A stretch of 64,000 nt of DNA from Candidatus Woesearchaeota archaeon (lineage in GTDB: Archaea > Nanobdellota > Nanobdellia > Woesearchaeales > GW2011-AR9). Position numbers and translations under genes: made by a program. This document shows positions 30,663 through 51,502 of the stretch, piece after piece. The stretch lies in contig JABHQW010000008.1 in assembly GCA_018696595.1 (NCBI GenBank), positions 32,001 to 96,000 on the forward strand, given 5' to 3'. The notes beneath the pieces are model-generated. The model had not been told where the DNA came from. It was given only the letters and a program-made list of their open reading frames with translations, and did no database searches. How positions within the stretch are numbered: position 1 is the first letter of the stretch; each line of letters begins with the position of its first letter.

Positions 30663-32144
30663 ATGGAAAAAAAAGTAAAATATTGGTTGTTAGCGATATT
30701 CATCATTACGCTAACTGTAAGGTTAGTCCTAGCTTTTACAAGCCCTAATTTAACTTATGAATCATATTTTCATTTAAGACAAGTAGAACAAATTACAGAA
30801 ACAGGATTACCACAATACCAAGATACTTTATCGTATGGTGGCAGAGAAATGATTTTTCCGCCAGCGTTCCATTATCTAGCAGCTTTCTTCAACCTGTTCT
30901 TACCGTTAGGGTTTGTAGCTAAGCTCCTACCAAATCTTCTCATAGCATCCCTAACATTAATAGTTTATTTAATCAGCAAAAAAATAACTAACAACAACAA
31001 CGCCGCCTTAGGTTCAGCATTAATAACTGGTTTCTTACCAGTTTTATTCTCTACAAACTCCTTCACCCCAAACTCTTTATTTTTGCCATTAATTTTTCTA
31101 ACAGTTTATGCCTTCATAAATATTAAAGCAAAGAATGCATTATACATTTACATCGCCACCTTTTTCATAGCTTCCTTAACTAGCTCAGCAACAATCCTAC
31201 TATTATTAGGGTTTGCAATTTATCTTATCCTTTCATTATCAGAAAATAAAAAAATCAAACAAGCAGAATTAGAAGTGATGATTTTCTCGGTCTTCTTCTT
31301 CATTTGGATCCAGTTTTTATTCTATAAAAATATTTTTCTAAAACAAGGATTAGGTTTCATTTGGCAAAACATTCCAACACAAATTGTTCAACAATATTTC
31401 CCCCAAGTATCAATCCCACAAGCAATATTATTGGTAAGTGTTGTGCCTTTCTTGATAGGAGTAGTTGTTGCTTACCGGGCCTTATTTAAATTAAAAACAG
31501 AAAAATCATTTTTATTAATCAGTTTCGTTATTTCAACTACAGCATTAGCTTGGTTTAAATTGATTGAGTTCCATTTATCTTTATCTTTCTTTGCTATAAT
31601 TTTAGCAATTCTTTTCGCATCATTTTATCATGACATCACTAATTATATGAAAAAAACAAAAGCACCAAAATTAATAAAATATCTACAGGCAGCGTTAATT
31701 ATTCTAATACTAGCAACAACAATTTATCCAGCAATAAACGTAAGTCTTAAACAAGATCTACCATTAAAAGAAGAGATAGATGCTTTCCGTTGGTTACAAT
31801 ATAACTCCCCTCAGAATGCGGGAGTGGTTTCTTTATTAAAAGAAGGACATTTGATTACCCATTATAGTAAAAGAAAAAACTTAATGGACGACCATTTTAA
31901 TCTAATTGAAAAAGTTGAGGAAAGATTTACAGATTTAAACTCCTTATTCACAACTAAATTTAAAACTCAAGCACTACAAATCTTAGATAAATATCAAATC
32001 AAATATTTGATTATAAGTCCAAGTGCCAAGGACCAGTTCAAGATTGAAGAATTAAGTTATGCAACGGAAGACTGTTTTGAATTAGTTTACGATGAAGAGA
32101 CTAAGATTTATCAAGTTAAGTGTCAATTATCAGCAACATCTTAA
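30663..32144 (+). CDS. GT-C-fold (ArnT/PMT-like) polytopic membrane glycosyltransferase candidate
   Basis: About 12 TM helices, YESYFHLR..YPPAF-like first loop (IFPPAFHYL), C-terminal soluble domain (AFRWLQYNSP). Confidence 0.7.
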   Translation: MEKKVKYWLLAIFIITLTVRLVLAFTSPNLTYESYFHLRQVEQITETGLPQYQDTLSYGGREMIFPPAFHYLAAFFNLFLPLGFVAKLLPNLLIASLTLIVYLISKKITNNNNAALGSALITGFLPVLFSTNSFTPNSLFLPLIFLTVYAFINIKAKNALYIYIATFFIASLTSSATILLLLGFAIYLILSLSENKKIKQAELEVMIFSVFFFIWIQFLFYKNIFLKQGLGFIWQNIPTQIVQQYFPQVSIPQAILLVSVVPFLIGVVVAYRALFKLKTEKSFLLISFVISTTALAWFKLIEFHLSLSFFAIILAILFASFYHDITNYMKKTKAPKLIKYLQAALIILILATTIYPAINVSLKQDLPLKEEIDAFRWLQYNSPQNAGVVSLLKEGHLITHYSKRKNLMDDHFNLIEKVEERFTDLNSLFTTKFKTQALQILDKYQIKYLIISPSAKDQFKIEELSYATEDCFELVYDEETKIYQVKCQLSATS

Positions 32145-33640: not shown

Positions 33641-34915
33641 ATGAATATTTTTGTAAACATACTATTATGGATCGCATATGCAGCATCTTTGTATTTCTCA
33701 ATTTTCTTATTACTAGTCTTTTTTGACAATAGAACAATTTTCGCTCAAGAAGAGTCATCCGCAAACCCCAAAATCACTCCAGAAGTTACAGTAATTGTTC
33801 CTGCATATAACGAAGAAAAAACAATTACTAGAACTTTACAATCCATTTGTAATTTAGATTACCCAAAAGAAAAGTTAGAAGTCTTGGTAGTGAATGACGG
33901 TTCAAAAGATAAAACTAAAGAAATAATTCAAGAATTTATCAAAGATAAACCCAACTTTAAACTAATCTCTCACTCCAATCAAGGTAAAGCTGCTTCAATG
34001 AATAAAGCGTTAAATGTAGCAAATGGAGAATTCTTTGCTTGTCTTGATGCAGATTCCTTTGTTGATTCTAAAACACTAAAGAAAATGTTATCCTTATACT
34101 ACAAAGAAGACGATCCTTCTCTTGTAATTATTACTCCAGCAATGAAAGTTTACAAACCTAAGAACATTCTCCAAAAAATCCAATGGCTAGAATATTTAGT
34201 AATAATCCTAATTGCCCGTATTACAAGTCAAATTGATTCGTTATACGTTGCACCTGGACCATTTTCGTTATACAAAACAAAAGTAATTCAGGAACTGGGT
34301 GGATTTGATGAAAAGAATATTACCGAAGATCAAGAGATTGCTTACAGAGTTCAAAGGAACCAGTATAAGATCAAACAATGTTTTGATGGGTATGTTTTCA
34401 CAACTGCTCCAAAAAAGATTAAACCATTTTATAAACAGAGAAGAAGGTGGTATTTAGGTAGTATTATGTGTATTAACCAGTATAAAGATATGGTTGCTAA
34501 CAGAAAGTACGGAGACTTTGGAGTGATGCAAATGATCAAAAATGTTTTGGGTTATGTTCTAGCAATAACAGGGATATCGTTAGCGGTGTACTTAATTTTC
34601 CTACCATTATTTAATAAGTTAAAAAACCTAATTTTAATCAAGTTCAATCTGTGGCCTTGGTTAACTAGTTTAGAATTAAAATTTAATTTCATCACTTTAC
34701 TTTTGATTGATTTTAGAAAAGGGTTCATCATCGCTTTTCTTTTTATGATTGGGTTCTTTTTCTTTTATTTAGCCCACAAAAATGCAAAAGAGAAAATGAT
34801 GAAATTTGGTCTTATTGCATTAATCCCTTATTTCATATTTTACTATTTGCTTAAAGGGATAATACTATTATTATCATTATTTGAATTTACGAGAGGTAGA
34901 AAAATAAAATGGTAG
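33641..34915 (+). CDS. Processive-type GT2 glycosyltransferase with TM segments (PgaC/cellulose-synthase-like)
   Basis: VPAYNEE, VNDGSKD, GKAASMN, LDADS, ITEDQE, KQRRRW (D,D,D,QxxRW). Confidence 0.88.
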   Translation: MNIFVNILLWIAYAASLYFSIFLLLVFFDNRTIFAQEESSANPKITPEVTVIVPAYNEEKTITRTLQSICNLDYPKEKLEVLVVNDGSKDKTKEIIQEFIKDKPNFKLISHSNQGKAASMNKALNVANGEFFACLDADSFVDSKTLKKMLSLYYKEDDPSLVIITPAMKVYKPKNILQKIQWLEYLVIILIARITSQIDSLYVAPGPFSLYKTKVIQELGGFDEKNITEDQEIAYRVQRNQYKIKQCFDGYVFTTAPKKIKPFYKQRRRWYLGSIMCINQYKDMVANRKYGDFGVMQMIKNVLGYVLAITGISLAVYLIFLPLFNKLKNLILIKFNLWPWLTSLELKFNFITLLLIDFRKGFIIAFLFMIGFFFFYLAHKNAKEKMMKFGLIALIPYFIFYYLLKGIILLLSLFEFTRGRKIKW

Positions 34916-35652
34916 AAGAAAAAAATAAAGTTCAAAAGGAGAAAAAAGAAGAAAAAGAAAGCATTAGTACTTTCAGAAGAATTAGTAAAGACAAATACAT
35001 TCTTGCAGGAATCATTACTTTCCTAATCTTTTCTTTAGGTCTAACATTTGGTTTCATATTAGAAGATTATCGTTATGGCTTAGTGGAAGAAATTAACATG
35101 GAACAAGAAGTCAAGTATTTAAGTTTACAACTCCAATATTTATATTTGGATGTTTTCAGTAATCAAGATAATTGCCCAATATTAGCTACAACTTTAAAGA
35201 AAACTGTTGAAGATTTAGATGAATCATTAAGTCAAGTTATTGCTTATGAAGAGAATAACAAAGGTTCAAAGATAGAACAAGACTTAATTATGCGAAGATA
35301 CGTATTAGATAATTTGCGTTATTGGCTTTTGTCCTTAGAAAGTAAACGTAGATGTGATCTTGACATTGTACCAATACTTTACTTTTACTCCACTGAATGC
35401 CCTTCCTGCCCAAACCAAGGGGCTGTTCTAACTTTCTTCAAAAATAAATTTGGAGAACAAGTATTAGTGTTTCCAATCAATTTAGATTTAAGACAGAAAG
35501 AACCAATGGTAGAAATAACAAAGTCACAATTTAACATCAATAAGATTCCCACTTTAGTTATTGATAACAAAAAGTATGAGGGGGTTATGCCTAAAGAAAC
35601 ATTGCAAAAACTGATTTGCTCTTCATTAAAGAATAAAGAAAATTGTGATTAA
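34909..35652 (+). CDS. Membrane-anchored thioredoxin-fold protein
   Basis: One TM helix, FYSTECPSC (CxxC), FNINKIPTLVI. Confidence 0.75.
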   Translation: MVEEKNKVQKEKKEEKESISTFRRISKDKYILAGIITFLIFSLGLTFGFILEDYRYGLVEEINMEQEVKYLSLQLQYLYLDVFSNQDNCPILATTLKKTVEDLDESLSQVIAYEENNKGSKIEQDLIMRRYVLDNLRYWLLSLESKRRCDLDIVPILYFYSTECPSCPNQGAVLTFFKNKFGEQVLVFPINLDLRQKEPMVEITKSQFNINKIPTLVIDNKKYEGVMPKETLQKLICSSLKNKENCD

Positions 35653-37149
35653 ATGAAACTAAAAGACAATAAAACAATCAGGAAAGTACAAAAAGAGATA
35701 GTCAATAAACCACTATTTTATTTAATCCTACTTACAATCTTAATTCGATTGTTTTATTTGTCAATGCAACATCCTTTGTGGTGGGATTCCCACATTTATA
35801 TTGGAATGGGGAAGTTCATTTTTTCTCAAGGTAAAGTTGGAATCTGGGAAAGTTTTAGGCCGTTAGTTCACCCAATAATTATTGGGGCGTTCTGGAAACT
35901 AAACTTCAACCCTATCATGATTGGAAAACTATTAGATTTAGTCTTCTCAACTACCGCAGTTTACTTAACATACTTAATTGGAAAACAAACTTTTAATAAA
36001 ACGGTGGGACTGATTAGCGCATTAATTTTCAGTTTAACTTCTCTTTTCATTATGTTTACAGGATTAATTCTAACTGAACCCTTAGCAATTACTTTAGCAT
36101 TGTTAGGAATATACCTTTATCTTAGAGAAGAAAAAACCAGTAATACAAATAATGTAAAAGGTTATTTCTTATTAGCGATTTCAGGATTATTCTTAGGTCT
36201 TTCATTTATGACCAAATTTCCACAAGGGATAATATTTGGTGCATTGGCATTAATTCTATTATTTCGAAGAAAAAAATTAATTAAGAAATTTAAAGACCTA
36301 TTCTCCATAACATTCGGATTCTTGATTCCAGTCGCCCCCTATATGATTTTTAACTATTTTAAGTACCCAAACATGTTGGAACCGTTCATCTCAGGATCAT
36401 GGATTGTAACTACCTCTACCTGGGTTTATGGTACTGGAATAACTTTCTACCTAACAAATTTCTTTCTTCGCTATTGGATCTATCTTTTCTTTTTCGTGTA
36501 TATATATTTTTATTTCAAGGAAAAACATTGGCAAGACAATAAGAAAACATTTATCTTAATCACAGCAATCTTTTTTCTATTATACTTCATTATTCAAGTG
36601 CCAAGGAAAGAAGTAAGATACTTAACAACAATCTTACCTTTATTAACAACCTTAGTAGCCTATGCAATAATAAACATCTATCAAAAACTTAAAACAACCG
36701 AGAAACCCACATTAAGACCGTACGCTTTTGTAATTATTTGTATCATAATAACAATTGTTCATGTTCCAACTACCTTATACTCAGAGAAAGTCCCAACCTT
36801 TGAACAAGAAATCTTAATTCTTATTGATGAGTATAATATTACTAACGCAATTATGACCACAGACCCGTCATTTGTTTCATTTGTTGACCAACCAGTAATT
36901 ATCTTAAGTGCTGGATTACAGTTTGGGCCACAGATTTATGAAAGAGAGAAAAGTAATTATGGGTTATTGTTTATTAATAGTTGTGATTTCATTTGTGCTC
37001 CAAATGATAGTACTTGTTTAGAAAAAAAAAACAATTTTGTGAATTTAATTTTTAGTGAGAATAAAGAGATATTTAGGAAAACAGTTAAGAATTGTACTTA
37101 TTCAATCGCTTTACCAAAACCGCAAGATGGAGAATTAGCAGAAAAATGA
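35653..37149 (+). CDS. GT39/ArnT-like GT-C glycosyltransferase
   Basis: WWDSHIY, RPLVHP, ILTEPLA, FMTKFPQ, KEVRYL. Confidence 0.8.
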   Translation: MKLKDNKTIRKVQKEIVNKPLFYLILLTILIRLFYLSMQHPLWWDSHIYIGMGKFIFSQGKVGIWESFRPLVHPIIIGAFWKLNFNPIMIGKLLDLVFSTTAVYLTYLIGKQTFNKTVGLISALIFSLTSLFIMFTGLILTEPLAITLALLGIYLYLREEKTSNTNNVKGYFLLAISGLFLGLSFMTKFPQGIIFGALALILLFRRKKLIKKFKDLFSITFGFLIPVAPYMIFNYFKYPNMLEPFISGSWIVTTSTWVYGTGITFYLTNFFLRYWIYLFFFVYIYFYFKEKHWQDNKKTFILITAIFFLLYFIIQVPRKEVRYLTTILPLLTTLVAYAIINIYQKLKTTEKPTLRPYAFVIICIIITIVHVPTTLYSEKVPTFEQEILILIDEYNITNAIMTTDPSFVSFVDQPVIILSAGLQFGPQIYEREKSNYGLLFINSCDFICAPNDSTCLEKKNNFVNLIFSENKEIFRKTVKNCTYSIALPKPQDGELAEK

Positions 37150-38509: not shown

Positions 38510-38637
38510 TTTAGAATGTAAAAACAGAACCCATATTAAAAGCTAACGGTCATAAGAACTGATTAAAGTATTACACTATAATAAATCTTATAAAGGACCC
38601 CTGCTTAAAACCAAAATAAAGGGCGAGGTGGTCTAAT

Positions 38638-41600
38638 TTGGAAGAAAAAAGACTTGAAGAAGAAAATACAAATAATACCAATAACATTAATACTGTCAAC
38701 ATTACAAACGATATTATAAACAATAATCCAGAAGTTAATATTAACGATCCTGAGGTTAAAATTCTTGCTGAAGAGACTGAAATCGCTAAAGAAGAGACCA
38801 CAATAAATTTTAAAGAAAATAACCAAGAGCACAAAATAGAAGAAAGCAAAAGTAATGATAAAGAAAAGGAAAATGATGATGAAAAAAAGGCAGACAAAGA
38901 TGAAGAAATTGCCTTTGACTTCACTAAAACAAAAGAAAAAATAGTTGGATTCTTTAAAACAGATAAAAAATCAAATAAAAACAAACACAAAGAACAACAT
39001 CACTCTCATCATCATGAAAAAGAACAAAACTCAGAGAAAAAAGACTCTGAAGAAACTTCTTTTGATTTGAAAGAAATAAATAATGTATTTAAGAAAAATG
39101 CTAAATGGTTAATCCCTGTTCTTCTAATCTTTATTGCAATCTTTGTATCTAGTTATTTTAGAATGATGCCTTCAGATCTTCCAATCACAGATGCTTGGGC
39201 TGAGAATTCAGTAGACAATTTTTATAAACAACAGATACAACAACAAATTGATCAACAATATCCTAATTTACCACCACAAAACAAAGGCGCTTTAGTAGAA
39301 AAAGAGTTTCAAAACTTTCTCGATAATAATGAAGATTTAGTAAAACAACAAACCCAATCAACATCACAAGAGTATAAAAATTATTTCAAAGATGATTCTG
39401 GACAGACCTATCTATTAGCAATTGACCCGTACTATTGGTTCGCAGAGTCAAGAAATTATGTAGAAAACGGACAATTAGGAGATGGAACCAATTCTGAAGG
39501 AGATAGAATATTTAGTTTAAGAGGCGGAAGAGAAGATAAATCAATAACACAACTATCTTTTCACCCATTATTCCAAGGAATGTTGTTTAAAGTGTTAAGT
39601 TTCTTCAATAGAGATCTAACTTTATTACGAGTATCTTTCCTGCTACCTGCAATATTAATTGCACTATCGTTAATTCCTGCTTTCTTCATTGGAAGAAAAA
39701 TTGCCGGCAATGTTGGTGGGTTTTTTGCAGCAATAATCATAGCTATTAATTCAGCCCTACTAGGGCGGACCCCCGCGGGATTTTCTGACACTGACCCCTA
39801 TAACATACTTTTCCCATTAATAATTGCTTGGCTTTTCTTAGAAGCCTATACTATCAAAGAAAAATGGCAGAAACTTAGTGTTTTAGGTTTAGCTGGTTTA
39901 TTCACTGGTTTTTACGCAATCTCTTGGGGTGGATGGCACAACATTGTAAATTTTATTGTTTACGCTGCCATTGCATATTTGTTATATCAAACCTTCATTC
40001 ACCGTTCAGAGTTTAAAAAAGGAATAACCAATTTCTTTAAAAATAAAGAAATTAAAAACACTTTGTTAGTTTTATTCGCATATGTTATATCCTCTGGTAT
40101 TTTTGTTACTTGGTTTAAAAGTTTCGAAGATTTTATCCGAATACCCCTAAGACCTTTTCAATTTATTTTTATGAAAGATGTTGCAGTTAAATCTATTTGG
40201 CCAAATGTTTTAACAACCGTTGCAGAATTTAACGAAATTGCATTTAGTAATATTATTGCTCAAATGGGGGGCACTCTTTTGTTTTTCATTGGTGTTCTTG
40301 GAATAGTTTTAACATTTGTTAATAAAAATAAAGAAGGCAAAAGAAGAATTCATTACGCAATTTTCTTAACATTGTGGTTTATTGGAACTGCCTACTCATT
40401 CACTCAGGGAGTGCGTTTTTCAATCTTACTTGTACCTGCGTTTGCCATCTCATTTGGAGCGGCAATAGGAATTATTTATCAGTGGACATCCGGTTGGCTT
40501 AATAAAGAACTAAAATTGAGTAAATATTTAGCTAAGGGTTTAGTTTTGTTAATCTTTTGTTTGTTATTAATTGCTCCAATCACATCAGCAGATAAGATTG
40601 GAAAAAGTGAAATCCCAAGTATGAATGATGCCTGGTATAGTACCCTCACAAAAATTAAAGACACTTCAAATGATGCAATGATTACTTCATGGTGGGATTT
40701 TGGCCATTGGTTCTATGCAATTAGTGAAAGAAGAGTAACATTTGATGGTGGAGACCAAGGAGAAAGAATTCATTGGGTTGGAAAAACCTTGCTTACTGAT
40801 GATGAACAAGTTTCAGTAGGATTATTAAGAATGCTAAATTGTGGACAAGAAAAACCGGTACATATACTAGAAGAATTTTTAGAAAATGATGCAGTTAAAG
40901 CAGTAGACGTTCTTAATAAAATAATGGTAGTTAATGATAAAAAAGAAGCAATAAAAATATTGAAAAATGAAGGATTAACAACAGAACAGATTGCAGAAGT
41001 AATCAAATTAACTTATTGCGAAGACTTAATTGATCAGTATTATATTACTTCTGAAGATATGGTTGGAAAAGCTGGAGTCTGGGGCCATTTTGGTAGTTGG
41101 GATTTTAACAAAGCACTAATGTACCAAACAGTTATTAAAGACAAAGATAACGGAAAACAGATTTTAATGAACCAGTTTGGTTTAGATGAAGAAAAAGCAG
41201 ACCAATATTATTACAATATTATCAATACGGATGCTGATCGATGGATTGCACCATGGCCGGGCTATCACACTGGAATAAAAGGATGTGACTTGGTTTCAGG
41301 AACATCACAATTAAGTTGTTCTAACTCTGTCCAAGGACAAAATATAAATTTCTTGATAGACTTAAACACATACCAAGTTAGTATAGAAGGTAATCCTAAC
41401 GTTGTCCCAAACAGCATTGTTTACGCAACTAAAGAAGGAATAAAAGAGAAAGAACTTGAAGGGCAAAAGTTGGGTTCTTCCTTAGTTTTAATCCCAAATG
41501 GAGAAGGTTATAAAATTCTACTTGCCGACCCATTACAAGCAAATAGTATGTTCACAAAGCTATTTTACTTTGAAGGACATGGATTAAAATGTTTCAATAA

Positions 41601-42015
41601 ATTTGATGACCAACAACAAATGACTGGGGGTGGAAGAATAATTACTTGGACTGTTGATTTTAATTGCCAACAAGAAAACAGTATCTTTTTTCTTCCAAAA
41701 CCACTAAAAGAAGAAGTTAATGCTGCCCACATCTTAATTTCAACAGAAGATAAGAGTGAAGAAGAAGCATTAATATTAATTCAAGAAATAGAAAGTCAAG
41801 CAACAATAGAAAGTTTTGCAGAACTAGCCAAAAAGTATTCACAAGATCCAGGAAGCGCAGTTAATGGTGGAACTTTAGGGTGGTTTGGAAAAGGATTAAT
41901 GGTGCAAGAATTTGAAGAAGCTACTTTTTCACTAAATATTGGAGAGATTTCCAAACCAGTAAAAACACAGTTTGGGTATCATTTGATTTATTTAGTTGAT
42001 AAGAGAATGAGTTAG
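38638..42015 (+). CDS. aglB: Oligosaccharyltransferase AglB with low-complexity N-terminus and C-terminal parvulin PPIase domain
   Basis: IDPYYW, FSDTDPYN, TTVAE, SWWDFGHW, TFDGGDQ; C-term AAHILI..FAELAKKYSQDPGS..GGTLGWF..MVQEFEEATF..PVKTQFGYHLI; TTG start with GAGGTG SD. Confidence 0.93.
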   Translation: MEEKRLEEENTNNTNNINTVNITNDIINNNPEVNINDPEVKILAEETEIAKEETTINFKENNQEHKIEESKSNDKEKENDDEKKADKDEEIAFDFTKTKEKIVGFFKTDKKSNKNKHKEQHHSHHHEKEQNSEKKDSEETSFDLKEINNVFKKNAKWLIPVLLIFIAIFVSSYFRMMPSDLPITDAWAENSVDNFYKQQIQQQIDQQYPNLPPQNKGALVEKEFQNFLDNNEDLVKQQTQSTSQEYKNYFKDDSGQTYLLAIDPYYWFAESRNYVENGQLGDGTNSEGDRIFSLRGGREDKSITQLSFHPLFQGMLFKVLSFFNRDLTLLRVSFLLPAILIALSLIPAFFIGRKIAGNVGGFFAAIIIAINSALLGRTPAGFSDTDPYNILFPLIIAWLFLEAYTIKEKWQKLSVLGLAGLFTGFYAISWGGWHNIVNFIVYAAIAYLLYQTFIHRSEFKKGITNFFKNKEIKNTLLVLFAYVISSGIFVTWFKSFEDFIRIPLRPFQFIFMKDVAVKSIWPNVLTTVAEFNEIAFSNIIAQMGGTLLFFIGVLGIVLTFVNKNKEGKRRIHYAIFLTLWFIGTAYSFTQGVRFSILLVPAFAISFGAAIGIIYQWTSGWLNKELKLSKYLAKGLVLLIFCLLLIAPITSADKIGKSEIPSMNDAWYSTLTKIKDTSNDAMITSWWDFGHWFYAISERRVTFDGGDQGERIHWVGKTLLTDDEQVSVGLLRMLNCGQEKPVHILEEFLENDAVKAVDVLNKIMVVNDKKEAIKILKNEGLTTEQIAEVIKLTYCEDLIDQYYITSEDMVGKAGVWGHFGSWDFNKALMYQTVIKDKDNGKQILMNQFGLDEEKADQYYYNIINTDADRWIAPWPGYHTGIKGCDLVSGTSQLSCSNSVQGQNINFLIDLNTYQVSIEGNPNVVPNSIVYATKEGIKEKELEGQKLGSSLVLIPNGEGYKILLADPLQANSMFTKLFYFEGHGLKCFNKFDDQQQMTGGGRIITWTVDFNCQQENSIFFLPKPLKEEVNAAHILISTEDKSEEEALILIQEIESQATIESFAELAKKYSQDPGSAVNGGTLGWFGKGLMVQEFEEATFSLNIGEISKPVKTQFGYHLIYLVDKRMS

Positions 42016-42061: not shown

Positions 42062-42712
42062 ATGAACTACGTAGTTATTCCAGCACATAACGAAGAAAAG
42101 CATCTCGAACAAGTAATTGATACAACAAAAAAAAATTGTGAGAATATTATTGTTGTTGATGATGGTAGCAAAGATAAAACTTCGGAAATTGCTAAAAAGA
42201 AAGGGGTTTTATTGTTAAAATTAAAAGTTAATTTAGGTAAAGGTGCAGCATTAAAAACAGGGTGTGATTATGCTTATATCAATGGAGCTAAAAAGATAGT
42301 AGTAATGGACGCCGATGGCCAACATAATCCCAACCAAATACCATTATTCTTAAACAACCTTGATAATCATGACATTATTTTTGGGTACAGACAAAGATCA
42401 AAAGACATGCCAGCCATTCTAAGATTTGGCAATTGGTTTATTAATAAAACAGTGTCCATTCTTTACAATGTTTCATTAAATGATACTCAGTCAGGTTATA
42501 GGTCATTTACTAATAAAACATACAAAAAGATAAGATGGCAAGCTTCTGATTATAGTATGGAATCAGAAATGATTGCCAATACAGGAAAACATAAATTACG
42601 ATACAAACAAATACCAATTGAAACAATATATTCAGACAATTATAAAGGCACAACAGTTATTGATGGAATTAAGATTGTCTTAAAGACAATTAGTTGGAGG
42701 TTATTAAAATGA
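42062..42712 (+). CDS. GT2, polyprenol-phosphate glycosyltransferase (DPM-synthase-like)
   Basis: IPAHNEE, VDDGSKD, GKGAALKTG, MDADGQH, DTQSGYR. Confidence 0.88.
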   Translation: MNYVVIPAHNEEKHLEQVIDTTKKNCENIIVVDDGSKDKTSEIAKKKGVLLLKLKVNLGKGAALKTGCDYAYINGAKKIVVMDADGQHNPNQIPLFLNNLDNHDIIFGYRQRSKDMPAILRFGNWFINKTVSILYNVSLNDTQSGYRSFTNKTYKKIRWQASDYSMESEMIANTGKHKLRYKQIPIETIYSDNYKGTTVIDGIKIVLKTISWRLLK

Positions 42713-43062
42713 GCACTACATTTTGGATTCAATTATTAGGGGCTATTTTTGGTATAGCTATGTCATACTTCACTTATGTTAAATTTAAAAGAAAAGAATT
42801 AAGTTCGACAGAAGTAGTTTTTTGGACAGGCGGATGGTTATTATTAATATTAGTAGCAATTATCCCGGAGATCTTAGATCCAATAATTGGCCCATTAAAC
42901 TTTTATCGCAGATTAGATTTTTTTGTAGTTTTAGGATTTTTCTTTTTATTGGGAATTGGATTTTACAATTATAGCCTCACTAAAAAAATGGAGAAAAAAA
43001 TTGAACGTTTAGTTAGAACAGAAGCAATTAATCAAAGAAAGGATGATAAAATAGAAGAATGA
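42709..43062 (+). CDS. DUF2304-like small membrane protein
   Basis: Three TMs, RRLDFF, C-terminal IERLVRTEAI; coupled to the GT2; start moved to ATG 42709 after GGAGG. Confidence 0.75.
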   Translation: MSTTFWIQLLGAIFGIAMSYFTYVKFKRKELSSTEVVFWTGGWLLLILVAIIPEILDPIIGPLNFYRRLDFFVVLGFFFLLGIGFYNYSLTKKMEKKIERLVRTEAINQRKDDKIEE

Positions 43063-44198
43063 AAATACTATTTATTTGTGAGAATTACTTGCCCCATTAT
43101 GGGGGTGCCGAAGTTGTTTTCAAGAATCTTGCAGAATCTTATGCCATTAAAGGTCATAACGTTGCATTACTAACTCACCAAATTAAAGGAACAAAAAAAA
43201 GAGAAGAAATGGGGGCAGTTAAGGTTATCAGAGTCCCCTCATTTAACTCCAGATATATTTTTAGTTTTTCTGCTATTCTTAAGGCAATTAAATTAGCTAA
43301 ACATTGTGATGTAATCCAAACAACTACTTTTAATGGAACTTTTCCTGCTTGGATAGCTGCCAAAGTTTGCCGCAAACCAATAGTAATCACTGTACATGAA
43401 GTTTGGGTTAATAAATGGAGAAAAGTGACTAGTTTTCCCCGCTGGAAATGCTTCATTCATGATTTATTAGAAAGAGCAATTTATTTGTTACCATATGACC
43501 AATATGTTTGTGTTTCCAATGCAACAAAAAAAGACTTGCTTAAATTAGGAATAAATGAAAATAAAGTAAAAACAATCTATAATGGATTAGATTATAATTT
43601 CTGGAACAAAAATAATTTTAGTGACAAAAAGGTTCAAGAGATTAAGGAGCAACTCAATCTTAAAAAGAAAGTAGTTTATTACGCTAGTGGAAGACCCGGA
43701 GAATCAAAAGGTTTTGAAACTTTCATTAAAGCAATCCCTTTAATAAAGAGTAAAGTTCCAAATTCTTTTTTCTTATTAGCTTTGGGGTCTGTTGAAAAAT
43801 ACAAAAGAAAACATTTAGAATTACTGGCCTTAATAAAAAAGTTAAGAATTGAAAAAGAGATAAAAGTAATGAATTCTGTGCCATATGAAGAATTAGGACA
43901 TTATCTCAAAGCAGCCAATTATGTGGTGGTTCCTTCATTGGCGGAAGGATTTGGTTACACTACTGTTGAAGCAGTAGCAATGGAGAAACCAGTAATTGTT
44001 AGTAATGCGGGCTCACTTCCCGAAGTGGTTAGTGGTAAACACCTCATCTTTAAAAAAGGAAGCCCCATTGATTTAGCAGAGAAAGCGATACAAACAAATC
44101 AAGGCCAATACGAAAAAAGTAAAATGAAAAAGTTTTTATGGCAAAATAGTGTTCAAAGCTATTTGAGAGTTTATGAAAGATTGCTTAACCGTTTCTGA
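43059..44198 (+). CDS. GT4 glycosyltransferase
   Basis: YLPHYGGAE, TVHE, VVPSLAEGFGYTTVEA, GSLPEV. Confidence 0.9.
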   Translation: MKILFICENYLPHYGGAEVVFKNLAESYAIKGHNVALLTHQIKGTKKREEMGAVKVIRVPSFNSRYIFSFSAILKAIKLAKHCDVIQTTTFNGTFPAWIAAKVCRKPIVITVHEVWVNKWRKVTSFPRWKCFIHDLLERAIYLLPYDQYVCVSNATKKDLLKLGINENKVKTIYNGLDYNFWNKNNFSDKKVQEIKEQLNLKKKVVYYASGRPGESKGFETFIKAIPLIKSKVPNSFFLLALGSVEKYKRKHLELLALIKKLRIEKEIKVMNSVPYEELGHYLKAANYVVVPSLAEGFGYTTVEAVAMEKPVIVSNAGSLPEVVSGKHLIFKKGSPIDLAEKAIQTNQGQYEKSKMKKFLWQNSVQSYLRVYERLLNRF

Positions 44199-46192
44199 AT
44201 TAATGGTTTCCACCACCATTCGTTATCCCTATACCAAGAAATAGTTTTATCCAAACCTTCCTCGAAGCTGATTTGTGGTCTCCAACCAAGCGCATAAAGT
44301 TTATCAACATTAACACTATACCTTTTATCATTGAATGGTCGGTCTCTTACAAAGGTAATATAAGAATCATCTTTTCCCACCTTACTGATAATTAATTTTG
44401 TTAGTTCCAAGTTGGAGATTTCTTCATGGGTCCCAATGTTATAAGTTTCACCCACTATGCCACGTTCAAAAACAACATCTAATGCTGAACAAAAGTCTTC
44501 AACATGAATATAAGTTCTAATATTTTTGCCGTCACCATGTAAAGGAACTTTTTGATCCTGTAAAAGTTGAGTTATAAAACAAGGAATTATTTTTTCTGGA
44601 AACTGGTGTGAACCATAATTATTATTACCCCTAACAATAATAATTGGTAAGTTGTATGCCGTACAATACCCTTTAACAATCATCTCTGCAGCTGCTTTTG
44701 AAGCAGAGTAAGGATTCGTTGGATTTAACTTATCATCTTCTTTAAAACTGCCTTCTAAAATATCCCCATAAACTTCATCAGTAGAAACATGGATAATTCT
44801 CTTTATGTTACATTGGCGAGCCACTTCCATTAAAACATGTGTCCCATAAGTATTAGATTGAGTAAATATTAGTGAACTTTCAAAAGAATTGTCAACATGA
44901 CTCTCGGCAGCTAAATGAATTAAACAATCAACACCTTGTAATAAATGAGCCAAAAAGTTAAAATCACAAATATCCCCCCGTACAAAACTATAATTATCTT
45001 TATTATCAAGATCCTTTAAGCTATCTAAATTTCCGGCATATGTTAACTTATCAAAATTAATAAAATTGTGTTGTGGGTACTTGTTAACCATATAACGAAT
45101 AAAATTACTTCCAATAAAACCAGCCCCACCAGTTATAACAATCTTCATTTTATTTTTTATTTTGTTTCCTAATTCATTTTTAAAACCATCAATCATTTGT
45201 CCTTCACCATCCAAAGAATTATTCTTTTTAATATTATCAAAACAAGCATTTTTATTATTGTGATTAATATATTTATTTTTTAATCTTCCAATTCCTTCTT
45301 CTAAAAATATTTTTGGAGACCACCCGGTGATAGTTTTAATTTTTGTTATATCCATAACACAACTATCTAATTCAAACAACTTTTCTTTGTAAGCTAGCTC
45401 TTCAAATACAATGTTACTATTACTTTCACAAATAGAAATTATTTGTTTAGCAACATCCCTCATAATAACTCCTTCCCCAGAACCAACATTAAATACTCCC
45501 GTTGATTTTAAATCAATAAGTCTTAGGAAAAGATTAGTTAAATCATCAATGTAAAGAAAATCTTTAAAATCATTTCCATCACCAAAGACATTAATATCTT
45601 GATTACTAATGGCTTTTTTTACGAAAATAGGAATTACATTGTTTGGTTCTCCCCGACAATCAAACCCATAAACACTAGAAACTCTTAATGAAATTATTTT
45701 CAAACCATAGATCTTATGATAATAATTGATATACTGTTCCGCAGTTTGTTTGTGTATTCCATAAAGTGAAAAAGGATTTTGAAAAAAATCCTCGTTAATC
45801 TTTTTATCTAAAGCCCCAGTTTTTCCAAATTGTGTCCGCGAACCAATAAATATATGATAACAATTTGGATTAACATTTTTGATTGCTTCTAAAACATTTA
45901 ATTCCCCTAAGCAATTAACTTTTAAACTATTGATAGCAATTTTATCTTCAACATGTTTATCTATTACTGCAGCTAAATTTATAACAACATCATGATCTTT
46001 AATTAATCTCTCAACTAATAAGTAATCGGTGATAGACCCACTCACAAAATTAACTTTTTTAAAAAAAGCACAAGATTGAATTTTATTCTCATTATTAGCT
46101 AGAATAGTAATATGGTTTTCTTGTTCCAAAAGTGTTTTCACTAAGTTTAACCCAATAAAACCATTCCCTCCAATTATTAAAATTCTTTTCAT
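44171..46192 (-). CDS. rfbB: Tandem SDR fusion: NAD-dependent epimerase + dTDP-glucose 4,6-dehydratase
   Basis: Domain 1: IGGNGFIG..YGIHK. Domain 2 from M349 (nt 45148): TGGAGFIG, DKLTYAGN, AAESHVD, STDEVYG, NPYSASK, NNYG..FPEKIIP. Confidence 0.88.
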   Translation of the reverse strand: MKRILIIGGNGFIGLNLVKTLLEQENHITILANNENKIQSCAFFKKVNFVSGSITDYLLVERLIKDHDVVINLAAVIDKHVEDKIAINSLKVNCLGELNVLEAIKNVNPNCYHIFIGSRTQFGKTGALDKKINEDFFQNPFSLYGIHKQTAEQYINYYHKIYGLKIISLRVSSVYGFDCRGEPNNVIPIFVKKAISNQDINVFGDGNDFKDFLYIDDLTNLFLRLIDLKSTGVFNVGSGEGVIMRDVAKQIISICESNSNIVFEELAYKEKLFELDSCVMDITKIKTITGWSPKIFLEEGIGRLKNKYINHNNKNACFDNIKKNNSLDGEGQMIDGFKNELGNKIKNKMKIVITGGAGFIGSNFIRYMVNKYPQHNFINFDKLTYAGNLDSLKDLDNKDNYSFVRGDICDFNFLAHLLQGVDCLIHLAAESHVDNSFESSLIFTQSNTYGTHVLMEVARQCNIKRIIHVSTDEVYGDILEGSFKEDDKLNPTNPYSASKAAAEMIVKGYCTAYNLPIIIVRGNNNYGSHQFPEKIIPCFITQLLQDQKVPLHGDGKNIRTYIHVEDFCSALDVVFERGIVGETYNIGTHEEISNLELTKLIISKVGKDDSYITFVRDRPFNDKRYSVNVDKLYALGWRPQISFEEGLDKTISWYRDNEWWWKPLIQKRLSNLS

Positions 46193-46226: not shown

Positions 46227-47876
46227 TTATTTTTTATCTCTTTTTGCTATTATGGCATTAATTCTTTTATAATCTTCAAATGTATGAATTTCAGTCCAAC
46301 CTTTATTGACTTCTAAACAATCAACTTTGTGTCCTTGCTCAATTAACTTTTGAATAGCATAAGTAAAATCTTTGTTTTTCATTTCTTCATAATTCTCAGA
46401 ATAGATTTGTTTTAGTAACTCGGTACCTTGTCCCGAAAACATTGCCATGCCAATAAATTCAAAATTTGCTTCATCCGGATCTAAATGTGAACCAATTTTA
46501 ACAATTTCATTATGGTCATCAAAAGTTAATGATCTTTCACCTAGATAGGGGTCTCTTTTACCAACAACAAGATCTAACTTTTTATTATACCGATTAGCAT
46601 TTAATTTATATGAAGAATCAATCACTAAAGTAATATCTCCTTCTTTCTTAATTAATCTTTCAACAATGTCCTTATCAAAAAGAAGGTCAGAATAAAGCAT
46701 TAGAATTTTTCCGTTCATTTTATCTTTAGCAGTCATGATTGAATGTAACGCTTTGGTGTTTTCATATTCAGAGTTATGATACTTATTAATTGCAGGAAGA
46801 TTAATTTTTTCCCCACAATAGCCAGTAACTACACTAATATCATTAATCTTAAGAGAATTAAGAATCTCAATATTTCTTTGAATAATTGGTTTGCCATTAA
46901 TATCAAGTAAACAAAGAGGGGTATCTTTTAGGTATACATCATTGAGCTTAGGATCTATTGGCTTACCAGCGGCAGGAATAATAACTTTAATCTCTTCAAA
47001 GTCTCCTTTAACATATTTCGTTTCATGGTCCTTCATTTCAAAAGTACCTTGAAGTTCAAACAATTCTTTTACTGGAATCAATTTTTCTGAGATTGTATGA
47101 ATCCCTCCTTGTTCTTTTATTTCCTTAAGTGTTTCTTTAATAGAAGTTACTGCAGATCTAATCACATGATTAGCATAAATAACCATCTTAACTTTAGGGT
47201 GATTTTTTATTTTATCCTCAGTCAAAGTGTAATAATTTGTAGGAACAATGACGATTGGAATATCTTCTTTCCACTCTTCAATAAACCTAATAACTTCTGC
47301 AGGATCACTTTGTTTAGAATGAATCATAATTGCATCTGCCCCTGCCTCAACATAAGCTTTGGCTCTTTTTTTTGCTTCTTCATGACCCCATCCAGCAATG
47401 AGGGCTTCAACACGAGCAATAACCATGAAATCATCATCTCGTTGAGCATTTTTAGCAGCCATAATCTTTCCAGAGAACTCAGCAATAGATGCTAATTCTT
47501 GTTTCCCTCCAACTAAAAGGCTATTCTGTTTTGGAAACTTTTTATCTTCCATAATTACTCCTGCAATTCCGGCTGCCTCAAATTTTTGAACCATCCGAAT
47601 TACGTTAATAGAATTACCATAACCTTGATCAACATCAACAACAACGGGAATCGTAACTGCATCATTCATAGAAACTGCCGCATCTAAATAGTCTGTCATA
47701 GTGAGAATATTAGCATCTGGAACAGCATGTGACGCCGAAACTTCTAAAGAAGAAGCCCAAACTCCTTCAAAGCCTGCTTTCTCGATTAATTTCGCAGTCA
47801 AACCATTATGAGCCCCAACTAAACGAAAGAACCCAGGAAGATTAAATAATTCACGCAATTTTTTTGATTTTTCCAT
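46227..47876 (-). CDS. aepX: Phosphoenolpyruvate mutase fused to C-terminal NTP-transferase-like domain
   Basis: GAHNGLTA, WASSL, VDVDQGYG, PepM signature EDKKFPKQNS, ARVEALIAG; C-term VIIPAAG..PLCLLDINGKPII. Confidence 0.96.
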   Translation of the reverse strand: MEKSKKLRELFNLPGFFRLVGAHNGLTAKLIEKAGFEGVWASSLEVSASHAVPDANILTMTDYLDAAVSMNDAVTIPVVVDVDQGYGNSINVIRMVQKFEAAGIAGVIMEDKKFPKQNSLLVGGKQELASIAEFSGKIMAAKNAQRDDDFMVIARVEALIAGWGHEEAKKRAKAYVEAGADAIMIHSKQSDPAEVIRFIEEWKEDIPIVIVPTNYYTLTEDKIKNHPKVKMVIYANHVIRSAVTSIKETLKEIKEQGGIHTISEKLIPVKELFELQGTFEMKDHETKYVKGDFEEIKVIIPAAGKPIDPKLNDVYLKDTPLCLLDINGKPIIQRNIEILNSLKINDISVVTGYCGEKINLPAINKYHNSEYENTKALHSIMTAKDKMNGKILMLYSDLLFDKDIVERLIKKEGDITLVIDSSYKLNANRYNKKLDLVVGKRDPYLGERSLTFDDHNEIVKIGSHLDPDEANFEFIGMAMFSGQGTELLKQIYSENYEEMKNKDFTYAIQKLIEQGHKVDCLEVNKGWTEIHTFEDYKRINAIIAKRDKK

Positions 47877-49103: not shown

Positions 49104-49186
49104 TGCACAAGAATTATAAATGAATTATAACCATTAACTACCTATTAATTTAAAAAAATTAACGAGAATGGATTAATTAATTGAAA

Positions 49187-50308
49187 ATGATAAACCCAGC
49201 ACAATTTTACGAACTTTTACAAACTAAAGAACTAACTATGTTTACCGGGGTGCCTGATTCTACCTTAAAACAATTATGTGCTTACATCACAGATCATGTG
49301 CCTCCAGAAAGAAATATTATAACTGCAAATGAAGGTAATGCAATTGGTTTAGCAAGTGGGTATTACTTAAGCACAAACAACCCTGCCATCGTTTACATGC
49401 AAAATTCGGGATTGGGAAATTGTGTTAATCCCTTAACTTCTTTAACTGATGAAGATGTTTATTCTATTCCAATGTTATTGATTATCGGCTGGAGAGGCGA
49501 ACCAGGAAAAAAAGATGAACCGCAACATGTAAGAATGGGACAAATAACTCTGGAGATGTTGGATGTTCTAAAAATACCTTATTCTATTATTCCTGATACA
49601 ATTGAAGAAACAGAAATAGAGGTTAGTAAAGCTGTTGTTCATATGAACAATCATAAAACACCTTATGCTCTTGTTGTAAGAAAAGGAACTTTCACGGAAC
49701 ATAAATTACAAAATACAAAAACAACAAATTATCCCCTTAATCGCGAACAAGCAATAAGGACCCTTGTTCCGTTATTAGAAGAAGATGCTATTATAGTTTC
49801 AACCACTGGAAAAACATCAAGAGAATTATTTGAATTTAGAGAAGAACTTCAACAAGGACACGAAAGAGATTTCTTAACTGTTGGTTCAATGGGCCATTCA
49901 TCTTCAATTACTTTAGGAGTCGCCTTACAAAAACCAAAAAAGAAAGTATACTGTTTTGATGGTGATGGTGCGCTAATAATGCACATGGGTGCCTTATCAA
50001 CAATTGGCCAGTTACAACCAAAGAATCTGTGTCATATTGTATTGAATAATTTTGCACATGATTCGGTCGGGGGACAACCAACTGCTGCAGACAATATTGA
50101 TATTCCGCAAGTTGCTCAAGCTAACGGATATAAGAAAGTGTTCTCGGCTCAAAGCGAAGAAGAGATTAGAGCTAAAATAAAAGAAATCCAACAACTAGAA
50201 GGGCCAACATTATTAGAAATTAAAGTAAACAAAGGGGCAAGAAAAGAATTAGGAAGACCCACTACAACACCAAAAGAGAACAAATCTGAATTGATGAAGT
50301 ATTTATAA
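49187..50308 (+). CDS. aepY: Phosphonopyruvate decarboxylase
   Basis: FTGVPDS, ANEGNAIGLASG, YMQNSGLGN, GWRGEPG..DEPQH, TVGSMGH, DGDGALIMHMG, NNFAHDSVGGQPT. Confidence 0.96.
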   Translation: MINPAQFYELLQTKELTMFTGVPDSTLKQLCAYITDHVPPERNIITANEGNAIGLASGYYLSTNNPAIVYMQNSGLGNCVNPLTSLTDEDVYSIPMLLIIGWRGEPGKKDEPQHVRMGQITLEMLDVLKIPYSIIPDTIEETEIEVSKAVVHMNNHKTPYALVVRKGTFTEHKLQNTKTTNYPLNREQAIRTLVPLLEEDAIIVSTTGKTSRELFEFREELQQGHERDFLTVGSMGHSSSITLGVALQKPKKKVYCFDGDGALIMHMGALSTIGQLQPKNLCHIVLNNFAHDSVGGQPTAADNIDIPQVAQANGYKKVFSAQSEEEIRAKIKEIQQLEGPTLLEIKVNKGARKELGRPTTTPKENKSELMKYL

Positions 50309-50390: not shown

Positions 50391-51431
50391 TTAATTATCT
50401 TCCCAATCCTTTTTTGGAATTCTCCAGTCTTTTCCATAAACAAATTCGAGATGTTTTTCAGGATTAAAAGGGGCATGATACTCTTTCCCATAAAAATCTA
50501 TTTTTCCTAATTGACTATAATGTTCTCTTAAAAACTTCCACTCAATGATTCTACAATCTTTTAGTGAAACTTTTTCCCATAATAATTGAATTAATTTCCC
50601 TTTATAAGGAATAAAAGTAAATATAAATATCACTACATTAAAAAAACCTTTTAAAAACCAAGAAGGGATTCTTGAATCTTGTAGCTCTCCACCATGCCTT
50701 CTTATTAAAGTAATAAATGTATTTATTATCATCCTTCGCTTTTTTATGCCATCTCTAGCTGCCAACAACAACCAACCCAATAACGCAGTAATTTTTGTTT
50801 TTTTCTTTAAACTTTTTGTTTGAAAAAAAACTAAATAGTCCTTTTTTTTCCTAAGAATATGAATATTAATATGTAATGAACCTTTCTTTCTAAATGTAAT
50901 CATTCCACGATCAGCAAACCAACATACTTCAAACCCCTGATCTGATAGCTTATTAAGAGCATCTAGTAATGTATTTATATTAATTTCTTCCCTCACCATA
51001 CTAGTATCAATATCACAATCCCAAGATAATATTTTCTTATCCCTAACTGCTCCAAGAAGGGTACCACAATCTAATCTCCAAATTAAGTTATGTTCTTCAA
51101 ATACCTCTTTTATTTCTTCTAACGCTTTCACTGTTCCTTTTTCATGTGGGTTTTTTTCTTTTGAAGAAATTGTGGGCGTGTTCTTTCTAGAAATAACTTT
51201 TTCATTTAACTCCATTTGTATTTTTTGATTAATACTTTTATCTTTTATATTTCCAATTTTAGTTAAGTGTTTCCTAAAAGGACCGAGATTTGTCCTAAAT
51301 ATTCTACAATTTAACCAAAGGTATCCTTTCTCTTTTGTAATAGTATACACATTTTCTCTGAAAGGGTCTAATGGTGGTGTAAACCGAGTTGTTTTTACTA
51401 TATCGCCAACTTTAAAAATTGTTTTTGTCAT
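50391..51431 (-). CDS. LicD-family phosphotransferase with N-terminal extension
   Basis: LDCGTLLGAVRDKKILSWDCDID; C-term HLEFVYGKDWRIP; start moved to ATG 51431. Confidence 0.85.
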   Translation of the reverse strand: MTKTIFKVGDIVKTTRFTPPLDPFRENVYTITKEKGYLWLNCRIFRTNLGPFRKHLTKIGNIKDKSINQKIQMELNEKVISRKNTPTISSKEKNPHEKGTVKALEEIKEVFEEHNLIWRLDCGTLLGAVRDKKILSWDCDIDTSMVREEININTLLDALNKLSDQGFEVCWFADRGMITFRKKGSLHINIHILRKKKDYLVFFQTKSLKKKTKITALLGWLLLAARDGIKKRRMIINTFITLIRRHGGELQDSRIPSWFLKGFFNVVIFIFTFIPYKGKLIQLLWEKVSLKDCRIIEWKFLREHYSQLGKIDFYGKEYHAPFNPEKHLEFVYGKDWRIPKKDWEDN

Positions 51432-51502
51432 TTTCTTTATTATTCTCCACATAGTTAATCAATAAAATCAAAGATTATAATTACTAAGTAATTATAATTA
51501 AA

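Follow-up and report, generated by a model that had tools for sequence, protein, structure and literature searches.

An AglB oligosaccharyltransferase with a C-terminal parvulin domain in a Woesearchaeota archaeon

The stretch of DNA analysed here (the window) comprises 64,000 nucleotides of a Candidatus Woesearchaeota archaeon (Nanobdellota; Nanobdellia; Woesearchaeales; GW2011-AR9), taken from positions 32,001 to 96,000 of the forward strand of contig JABHQW010000008.1 (assembly GCA_018696595.1). It contains a gene in which AglB, the archaeal oligosaccharyltransferase (OST), is joined in one reading frame to a C-terminal peptidyl-prolyl isomerase (PPIase) domain of the parvulin type (Table 1). 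The open reading frame (ORF) encodes 1125 amino acids plus a stop codon and has no internal stop. Direct reading of the sequence places the start at a TTG codon, with the motif GAGGTGG six bases 5′ of it. Upstream of this TTG the frame stays open for just six more sense codons (1131 codons in all), and a non-ATG start is required because the first in-frame methionine falls within the first transmembrane (TM) helix, TM1. The genome of 1.19 Mb (8 contigs, 97% complete) has one STT3 and one parvulin, both of them in this gene.

Pfam matches on the protein run from STT3 (aa 244-612, E 6e-37) through a weak match to STT3-PglB_core (aa 681-775) to Rotamase_3 (aa 1024-1122, E 1e-29, 103.9 bits against a cut-off of 22.5). 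The OST motifs are located at residues 263-266 (DPYY), within 383-387 (DTD), 527-530 (TVAE), 685-689 (WWDFG) and 702-706 (FDGGD), and those of the parvulin at residues 1030-1034 (AHILI), 1060-1073 (FAELAKKYSQDPGS), 1077-1083 (GGTLGWF), 1088-1093 (MVQEFE) and 1108-1117 (VKTQFGYHLI). An earlier note on this DNA, made from its letters, had proposed the fusion, quoted these motifs, put the beginning of the parvulin near nt 41716 and regarded it as an outward-facing domain of the PrsA/SurA type. All of this has held up: STT3 and Rotamase_3 lie in a single ORF with a confirmed junction, every quoted motif is present at its mapped residues, the parvulin begins at about nt 41707-41725, and its orientation and nearest solved relatives, given below, agree with the note.

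Table 1. Positions in the window of the fusion gene, its domains and catalytic residues, and the genes that follow it.
Feature	Position	Strand	Basis
Shine-Dalgarno-like GAGGTGG	38625..38631	+	read from sequence
aglB-parvulin fusion gene, 1125 aa + stop	38638..42015	+	ORF + Pfam
Low-complexity N-terminal extension, predicted cytoplasmic, aa 1-149	38638..39084	+	composition: E/K/N-rich, His run
AglB GT-C membrane domain, aa 150-655	39085..40602	+	Pfam STT3, PglB 3RCE alignment, invariant columns, AF2/Foldseek
Catalytic D263 in DPYY	39424-39435	+	invariant column
Catalytic D384/D386	39784-39798	+	PglB alignment, invariance
Catalytic E530 in TVAE	40216-40227	+	PglB alignment, invariance
Catalytic R593	40411-40422	+	PglB alignment, invariance
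Extracytoplasmic C-terminal OST domain, aa 656-1015, invariant Cys, final VDFNC..FFLP strand	40603..41682	+	alignments, Foldseek, hydrophobicity
WWDFG motif of external OST domain	40690-40704	+	aligned to PglB WWDYG
Short linker, about aa 1016-1023	41683..41706	+	model pLDDT about 87-97 here
PpiC-type parvulin PPIase domain, aa 1024-1122; H1031, D1070, T1110, H1115	41707..42003	+	Pfam, Foldseek, conservation
GT2	42062-42712	+	Pfam
DUF2304	42694-43062	+	Pfam
GT4	43059-44198	+	Pfam

The OST part was compared with known enzymes and with the 120 closest homologues of the fusion protein, 70 of which are also fused to a parvulin. In a phmmer alignment to PglB of Campylobacter lari, D384/D386 correspond to D154/D156, E530 to E319, R593 to R375 and WWDFG to WWDYG, while D263, the first Asp of DPYY, lies beyond that alignment and is assigned by its invariance. 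All five of these charged residues (D263, D384, D386, E530 and R593) are invariant in the 120 homologues, as are W, W, D and G of WWDFG and cysteines of the external OST domain. In the region of a putative DK/MI-type motif, the type that forms the Ser/Thr pocket, the sequence alignment puts FDGGDQGERIHW opposite PglB IDGGKHLGKDNF. The N-terminal extensions of the homologues vary in length, and the consensus of the 120 sequences reveals a shared basic patch resembling I-D-F-S..K.K.K..FK just before TM1; the extension of this AglB (aa 1-149) should lie in the cytoplasm.

Structure prediction, which the earlier note had proposed as a check, yields a confident OST body followed by a parvulin fold. 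The AlphaFold2 (AF2) model of aa 150-1125, built from the 120-row alignment, has a mean predicted local distance difference test score (pLDDT) of 94.6 and a predicted TM-score (pTM) of 0.87, with no segment below 50. Foldseek matches the body of the model to PglB (E 9e-19) and to A. fulgidus AglB (E 1.5e-13), as well as to eukaryotic STT3. The protein has the tested defining features of the AglB/STT3 enzymes (GT66), namely the GT-C fold, the acidic residues and WWDXG, and is predicted to transfer lipid-linked glycans to Asn in N-X-S/T.

The closest solved relatives of the parvulin domain are the catalytically active SurA P2 and PrsA (E about 1e-23 to 1e-22), and Foldseek superposes the last ~100 residues of the model on PrsA parvulin domains with a root-mean-square deviation (rmsd) of 2.3-2.4 Å at 43% identity (2.0-2.4 Å with SurA-P2 domains included). 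H1031 and H1115 do not vary in any of the 70 fused homologues; T1110 is Thr in 67 sequences and Ser in three, and F1112 and G1113 are nearly invariant. The D1070 column is more mixed (D in 48, G in 19 and C in 3), and, as 13 sequences have Asp at the adjacent position 1069, some of its Gly entries may reflect an alignment shift of one residue. About a third of the domain (32 of about 100 positions) is at least 90% conserved. Mean pairwise identity is 59% for the parvulin, 44% for the membrane domain and 50% for the external OST domain, so no part of the protein is more constrained than the add-on. The fusion is evidently maintained by purifying selection, and the parvulin appears to be a live enzyme domain that keeps its catalytic residues and is predicted to be an active isomerase. 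A Pfam scan found neither SurA_N nor another chaperone domain in the fusion protein, and the NCBIfam models of PrsA and SurA match its parvulin part alone (68-78 bits against cut-offs of 343-394); judged by its domains, the protein would not belong to the PrsA or SurA chaperone families.

The final hydrophobic segment of the fusion protein ends at aa 655. In solved OSTs the domain that follows the last helix is external (3RCE, 3WAK), and the parvulin should likewise be extracytoplasmic because no membrane helix follows the external OST domain. The last Cys of the OST domain and the parvulin's catalytic His are 20 aa apart in this protein and 17 aa apart in 41 of the 70 fused homologues; most of those 17 residues belong to the flanking strands, and the linker itself is mostly just a few residues long. 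A complex prediction of AglB aa 150-1015 with parvulin aa 1020-1125 (70-row alignments, no controls) scored 0.00 and counts neither way.

An ORF of this composition could also be produced by an assembly or sequencing error that fuses two neighbouring genes near nt 41700, a possibility raised in the earlier note as an error hiding a stop codon, and a run of six T residues does lie right at the junction (41686-41691). Contigs from four independent marine runs, which are not candidate sources of the assembly, nevertheless bridge 41552-41921 with 0 differences and 0 gaps, and the 801-base junction stretch is present in 20 marine/seawater metagenome runs from 15 studies; no RNA run is listed among the sequencing runs. 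Moreover, the 70 fused homologues come from separate assemblies, extend down to 45% identity and hold one frame over the junction throughout. Together, the independent contigs and the fused homologues refute an artefact, and we regard its probability as negligible.

The fusion is not restricted to this genome. The source names of the homologues indicate Woesearchaeota or 'Nanoarchaeota' (DPANN), and database entries for such fusions are labelled 'peptidylprolyl isomerase' or 'STT3 domain-containing protein'. Scans of the window with Rfam and for tRNAs yielded nothing informative on taxonomy. Among 401 genomes sampled from the phylum, 196 contain a parvulin, and in at least 21 of them it is part of a frame of 937-1218 aa; all of these belong to the order of the present archaeon and represent at least nine families. 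Within its own family, 13 of 42 genomes (this one included) contain a parvulin, and every frame listed is of fused size. The other parvulins of the phylum take two forms, a free one of ~100 aa and one of 350-530 aa, in which one TM helix at the N-terminus is combined with an N-terminal region like that of SurA/PrsA. The latter proteins, as seen in the same order and class (L007-L016), have a basic cytoplasmic N-terminus and appear to be DPANN counterparts of PrsA that are anchored in the membrane. A further parvulin match was found in six of the 21 fused genomes, and for four of these a frame of 387-496 aa is listed, which is the size class of the TM-anchored form.

A tree of parvulin domains places 72 of the 74 fused ones in one group, separate from the free and anchored classes (support 88, which is not strong), and sets one fused pair, P0104 with the copy from G202, among the anchored forms. 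This topology fits one main ancient fusion event, plus perhaps a second. In a tree of the AglB core, counting well-supported branches only, the state of the C-terminus (parvulin, none or FKBP) changes at least 13 times, by loss or gain. Unfused homologues either stop exactly where the OST domain does or add a short acidic tail to it, and no separate parvulin gene was found beside aglB in the nearest of them (L006). The number of changes, the clean unfused ends and the lack of a neighbouring parvulin gene all point to frequent loss of the domain.

A second type of PPIase occurs at the same position. Six homologues have FKBP_C at the AglB C-terminus, for which the well-supported branches force at least two origins, and the ESM Atlas contains a 67-member cluster of FKBP-AglB proteins whose model superposes on that of the fusion protein (TM-score 0.82). 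No FKBP fusion was seen in the archaeon's own family. Because an unrelated fold has been recruited to the same C-terminus, PPIase function itself seems to be selected. As a separate observation from the ESM Atlas, the nearest unfused structural look-alike cluster (TM-scores 0.78/0.91) is labelled mostly Candidatus Omnitrophota, a bacterial group, a hint that this AglB type may have been transferred between bacteria and DPANN archaea, or that sequences were mis-binned.

The fusion gene sits within a large glycosylation cluster. It is followed by genes for a GT2 glycosyltransferase, a DUF2304 protein and a GT4 glycosyltransferase (Table 1). The order GT2-DUF2304 3′ of aglB is kept at one parvulin-fused homologous locus (L028), with one radical-SAM gene in between and GT4 next, and at one FKBP-fused locus (L029), where the contig stops after DUF2304. 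The 5′ side of the cluster encodes PMT_2-type GT-C enzymes, a GT2 protein, a UbiA prenyltransferase and a membrane-anchored thioredoxin-like protein. Two of these are PMT_2-type GT-C membrane glycosyltransferases, not STT3 (30663-32144 (+) and 35653-37149 (+)). The thioredoxin-like protein (34909-35652 (+), 247 aa), encoded three genes upstream of aglB, has one N-terminal TM helix and an external domain with C-P-S-C, and is reminiscent of the thioredoxin subunits of eukaryotic OST; as a conserved partner of AglB it was rejected, being absent at the three homologous loci examined.

Farther downstream of aglB lie genes for sugar-nucleotide enzymes and the phosphonate pathway. One of them (44171-46192 (-), 673 aa) encodes two tandem NAD-dependent epimerase/dehydratase domains and looks like two fused sugar-nucleotide enzymes. 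A fusion of phosphoenolpyruvate (PEP) mutase with a nucleotidyltransferase-like domain, a thiamine pyrophosphate (TPP) enzyme resembling phosphonopyruvate decarboxylase, and a LicD-family transferase (46227-47876 (-), 49181-50308 (+) and 50391-51452 (-), respectively) suggest that surface glycans are decorated with phosphonate. Elsewhere, the genome encodes two cytoplasmic FKBPs and a single cyclophilin as further PPIases. The cyclophilin (G000:C3:150077-150529) begins with a hydrophobic signal ending in a lipobox-like L-S-C, and is likely to be a lipid-anchored external PPIase.

On balance, we favour the view that this organism makes its sole AglB and an active parvulin, facing outward, as a single polypeptide, and we infer that glycosylation and folding are coupled through it; we consider this probable, although by no wide measure. 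Newly exported, unfolded chains engaged by AglB would find a PPIase no more than a few nanometres away, kept there by a linker only a few residues long, and X-Pro bonds around or downstream of sequons would be isomerised at the site and time of glycan transfer. The outcome would be a hand-over of the type 'glycosylate, then fold', in which folding follows glycosylation without diffusion. The domain would do work like that of PrsA at the membrane of Gram-positive bacteria, with AglB serving as its anchor and partner enzyme at once. The earlier note had named exported S-layer proteins as the putative clients, and had also considered a holdase that might keep sequons unfolded for the OST. The holdase part of its proposal fares less well: the add-on is a bare parvulin of ~100 aa with neither SurA_N nor a PrsA N/C module, and the FKBP add-ons are bare catalytic domains too. 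Because neither type of add-on has a chaperone module, tethered prolyl isomerisation is favoured over the holdase idea and is the simpler of the two. In a more far-reaching and rather doubtful version, the PPIase would be a working part of the glycosylation reaction itself, capturing or isomerising Pro-containing client segments and so widening the range of sequons within reach of AglB, much as MagT1 and Ost3/6 do for sites close to cysteines; parvulin and FKBP would have been recruited independently for this purpose, and the protein would be a minimal, one-chain prokaryotic counterpart of eukaryotic OST with its folding factors.

Several observations weigh against coupling, and particularly against strict mechanical coupling. 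In a few fused homologues the linker is acidic and as long as 52 residues, which speaks against the domain being docked in a fixed geometry. Its repeated loss shows the domain to be dispensable in evolution; in the archaeon's own family, 29 of the 41 other sampled genomes are without any parvulin, and since so many close relatives lack it, the add-on is better seen as accessory than as essential. Nor would the fused parvulin be the only external PPIase of the cell, given the signal peptide of the cyclophilin.

In the main rival explanation, the parvulin is a general extracytoplasmic foldase, and AglB, whose C-terminus is external, is no more than a handy membrane protein that holds it at the cell surface, with no link to glycosylation. 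AglB would then stand in for the lipid that anchors PrsA, or for the helix at the N-terminus of archaeal parvulins of 350-530 aa. Tethering does seem to be a common need, as related genomes have parvulins on a single N-terminal TM helix; the long and flexible acidic linkers of some fused forms and the frequent loss that leaves AglB intact are also in keeping with a mere anchor, and other domains, too, are found at the C-terminus of AglB proteins, such as Big_3_5 in clusters from Bathyarchaeota. However, two unrelated PPIase folds have been recruited to the end of AglB and not to other membrane proteins, the linkers are mostly just a few residues long, and the parvulin frames listed for the archaeon's family are all fused-sized, with no free or TM-anchored form seen among them. 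In several genomes, fused and TM-anchored forms occur together, and the presence of parvulins of TM-anchored size in fused genomes indicates that AglB is not just a substitute anchor. For these reasons (two folds at one end, a family whose listed frames are all fused-sized, and coexisting forms) we rate the anchor explanation below coupling and consider it unlikely.

The parvulin might alternatively work without catalysis, as a peptide-binding or adaptor module, or within its own chain, as a built-in chaperone for the Cys-containing external domain of AglB. The functions of PrsA and SurA are not strictly dependent on PPIase activity, and the external OST domain contains invariant cysteines. 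The human protein FKBP11 offers a precedent that also counts against coupling through isomerisation: at the SEC61-OST-A translocon it acts as an adaptor, with its catalytic site buried (PMC12804085). Against a non-catalytic role stands the pattern of conservation, with an invariant catalytic His pair and nearly invariant T1110, F1112 and G1113, which is that expected of an active enzyme. An intramolecular role is further disfavoured because domain-less AglBs are common and intact, which implies that AglB folds independently of the parvulin. Taken together, a non-catalytic or intramolecular function seems quite improbable to us, and coupling of glycosylation to prolyl isomerisation remains the reading that we prefer.

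To our knowledge, the timing of N-glycosylation relative to folding is understood only for the eukaryotic endoplasmic reticulum (ER), where separate subunits coordinate the two, and the prokaryotic OST is regarded as an enzyme that acts alone. That a one-chain OST-PPIase has been kept across an order of archaea still uncultured, and that an FKBP version parallels it, suggests that the coordination problem also exists at the archaeal cell surface and is solved there by fusion. The protein also provides a simple test object, a single gene whose 100-aa domain can be removed or given two point mutations for comparison, and might be of use in engineering bacterial glycoprotein production. The earlier note had asked whether such fusions were already widespread and described. 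They are indeed widespread in the databases, in DPANN archaea of the Woesearchaeales type (the 70 homologues and at least 21 phylum genomes given above), but no description of an OST-PPIase fusion was found in the literature, in a search whose coverage did not extend to subscription journals. The fusion is therefore a real and conserved variant of a known enzyme, and apparently an undescribed one.

We know of no PPIase in any solved or described OST enzyme. With AglB, PglB and STT3 (GT66; C. lari PglB 3RCE/6GXC, A. fulgidus AglB 3WAK/7E9S), the fusion protein shares the membrane and external domains and all catalytic motifs, and it differs from them also in its extra low-complexity cytoplasmic N-terminal extension of 150 aa. 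The parvulin part resembles PrsA of Firmicutes and SurA of Proteobacteria, being of the same parvulin type (34-46% identity to the parvulin domains of PrsA, SurA and related proteins, rmsd about 2.0-3.3 Å to the PrsA/SurA-P2 structures), with the same catalytic residues and the same extracytoplasmic location. Unlike PrsA and SurA, it has no N- or C-terminal chaperone domains, and its anchor is the enzyme to which it is fused, in place of a lipid or a free state in the periplasm.

A conceptual parallel exists in the folding factors of eukaryotic OST, where a folding catalyst is likewise held at the enzyme and the folding and glycosylation of one chain are coordinated. These factors include FKBP11 and the thioredoxin-like proteins Ost3/Ost6 and MagT1/TUSC3, and the oxidoreductase activity of MagT1 is needed for Cys-proximal sequons (PMC4137057). 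They differ from the fused parvulin in being separate subunits without homology to it; moreover, Ost3/6 and MagT1 perform disulfide rather than prolyl chemistry, and FKBP11 is seemingly non-catalytic. A further counterpart is the FKBP-AglB of sister Woesearchaeota, which belongs to the same AglB clade and shares with the present protein the C-terminal position of the add-on and the downstream GT2-DUF2304 genes, while its PPIase domain has the unrelated FKBP_C fold.

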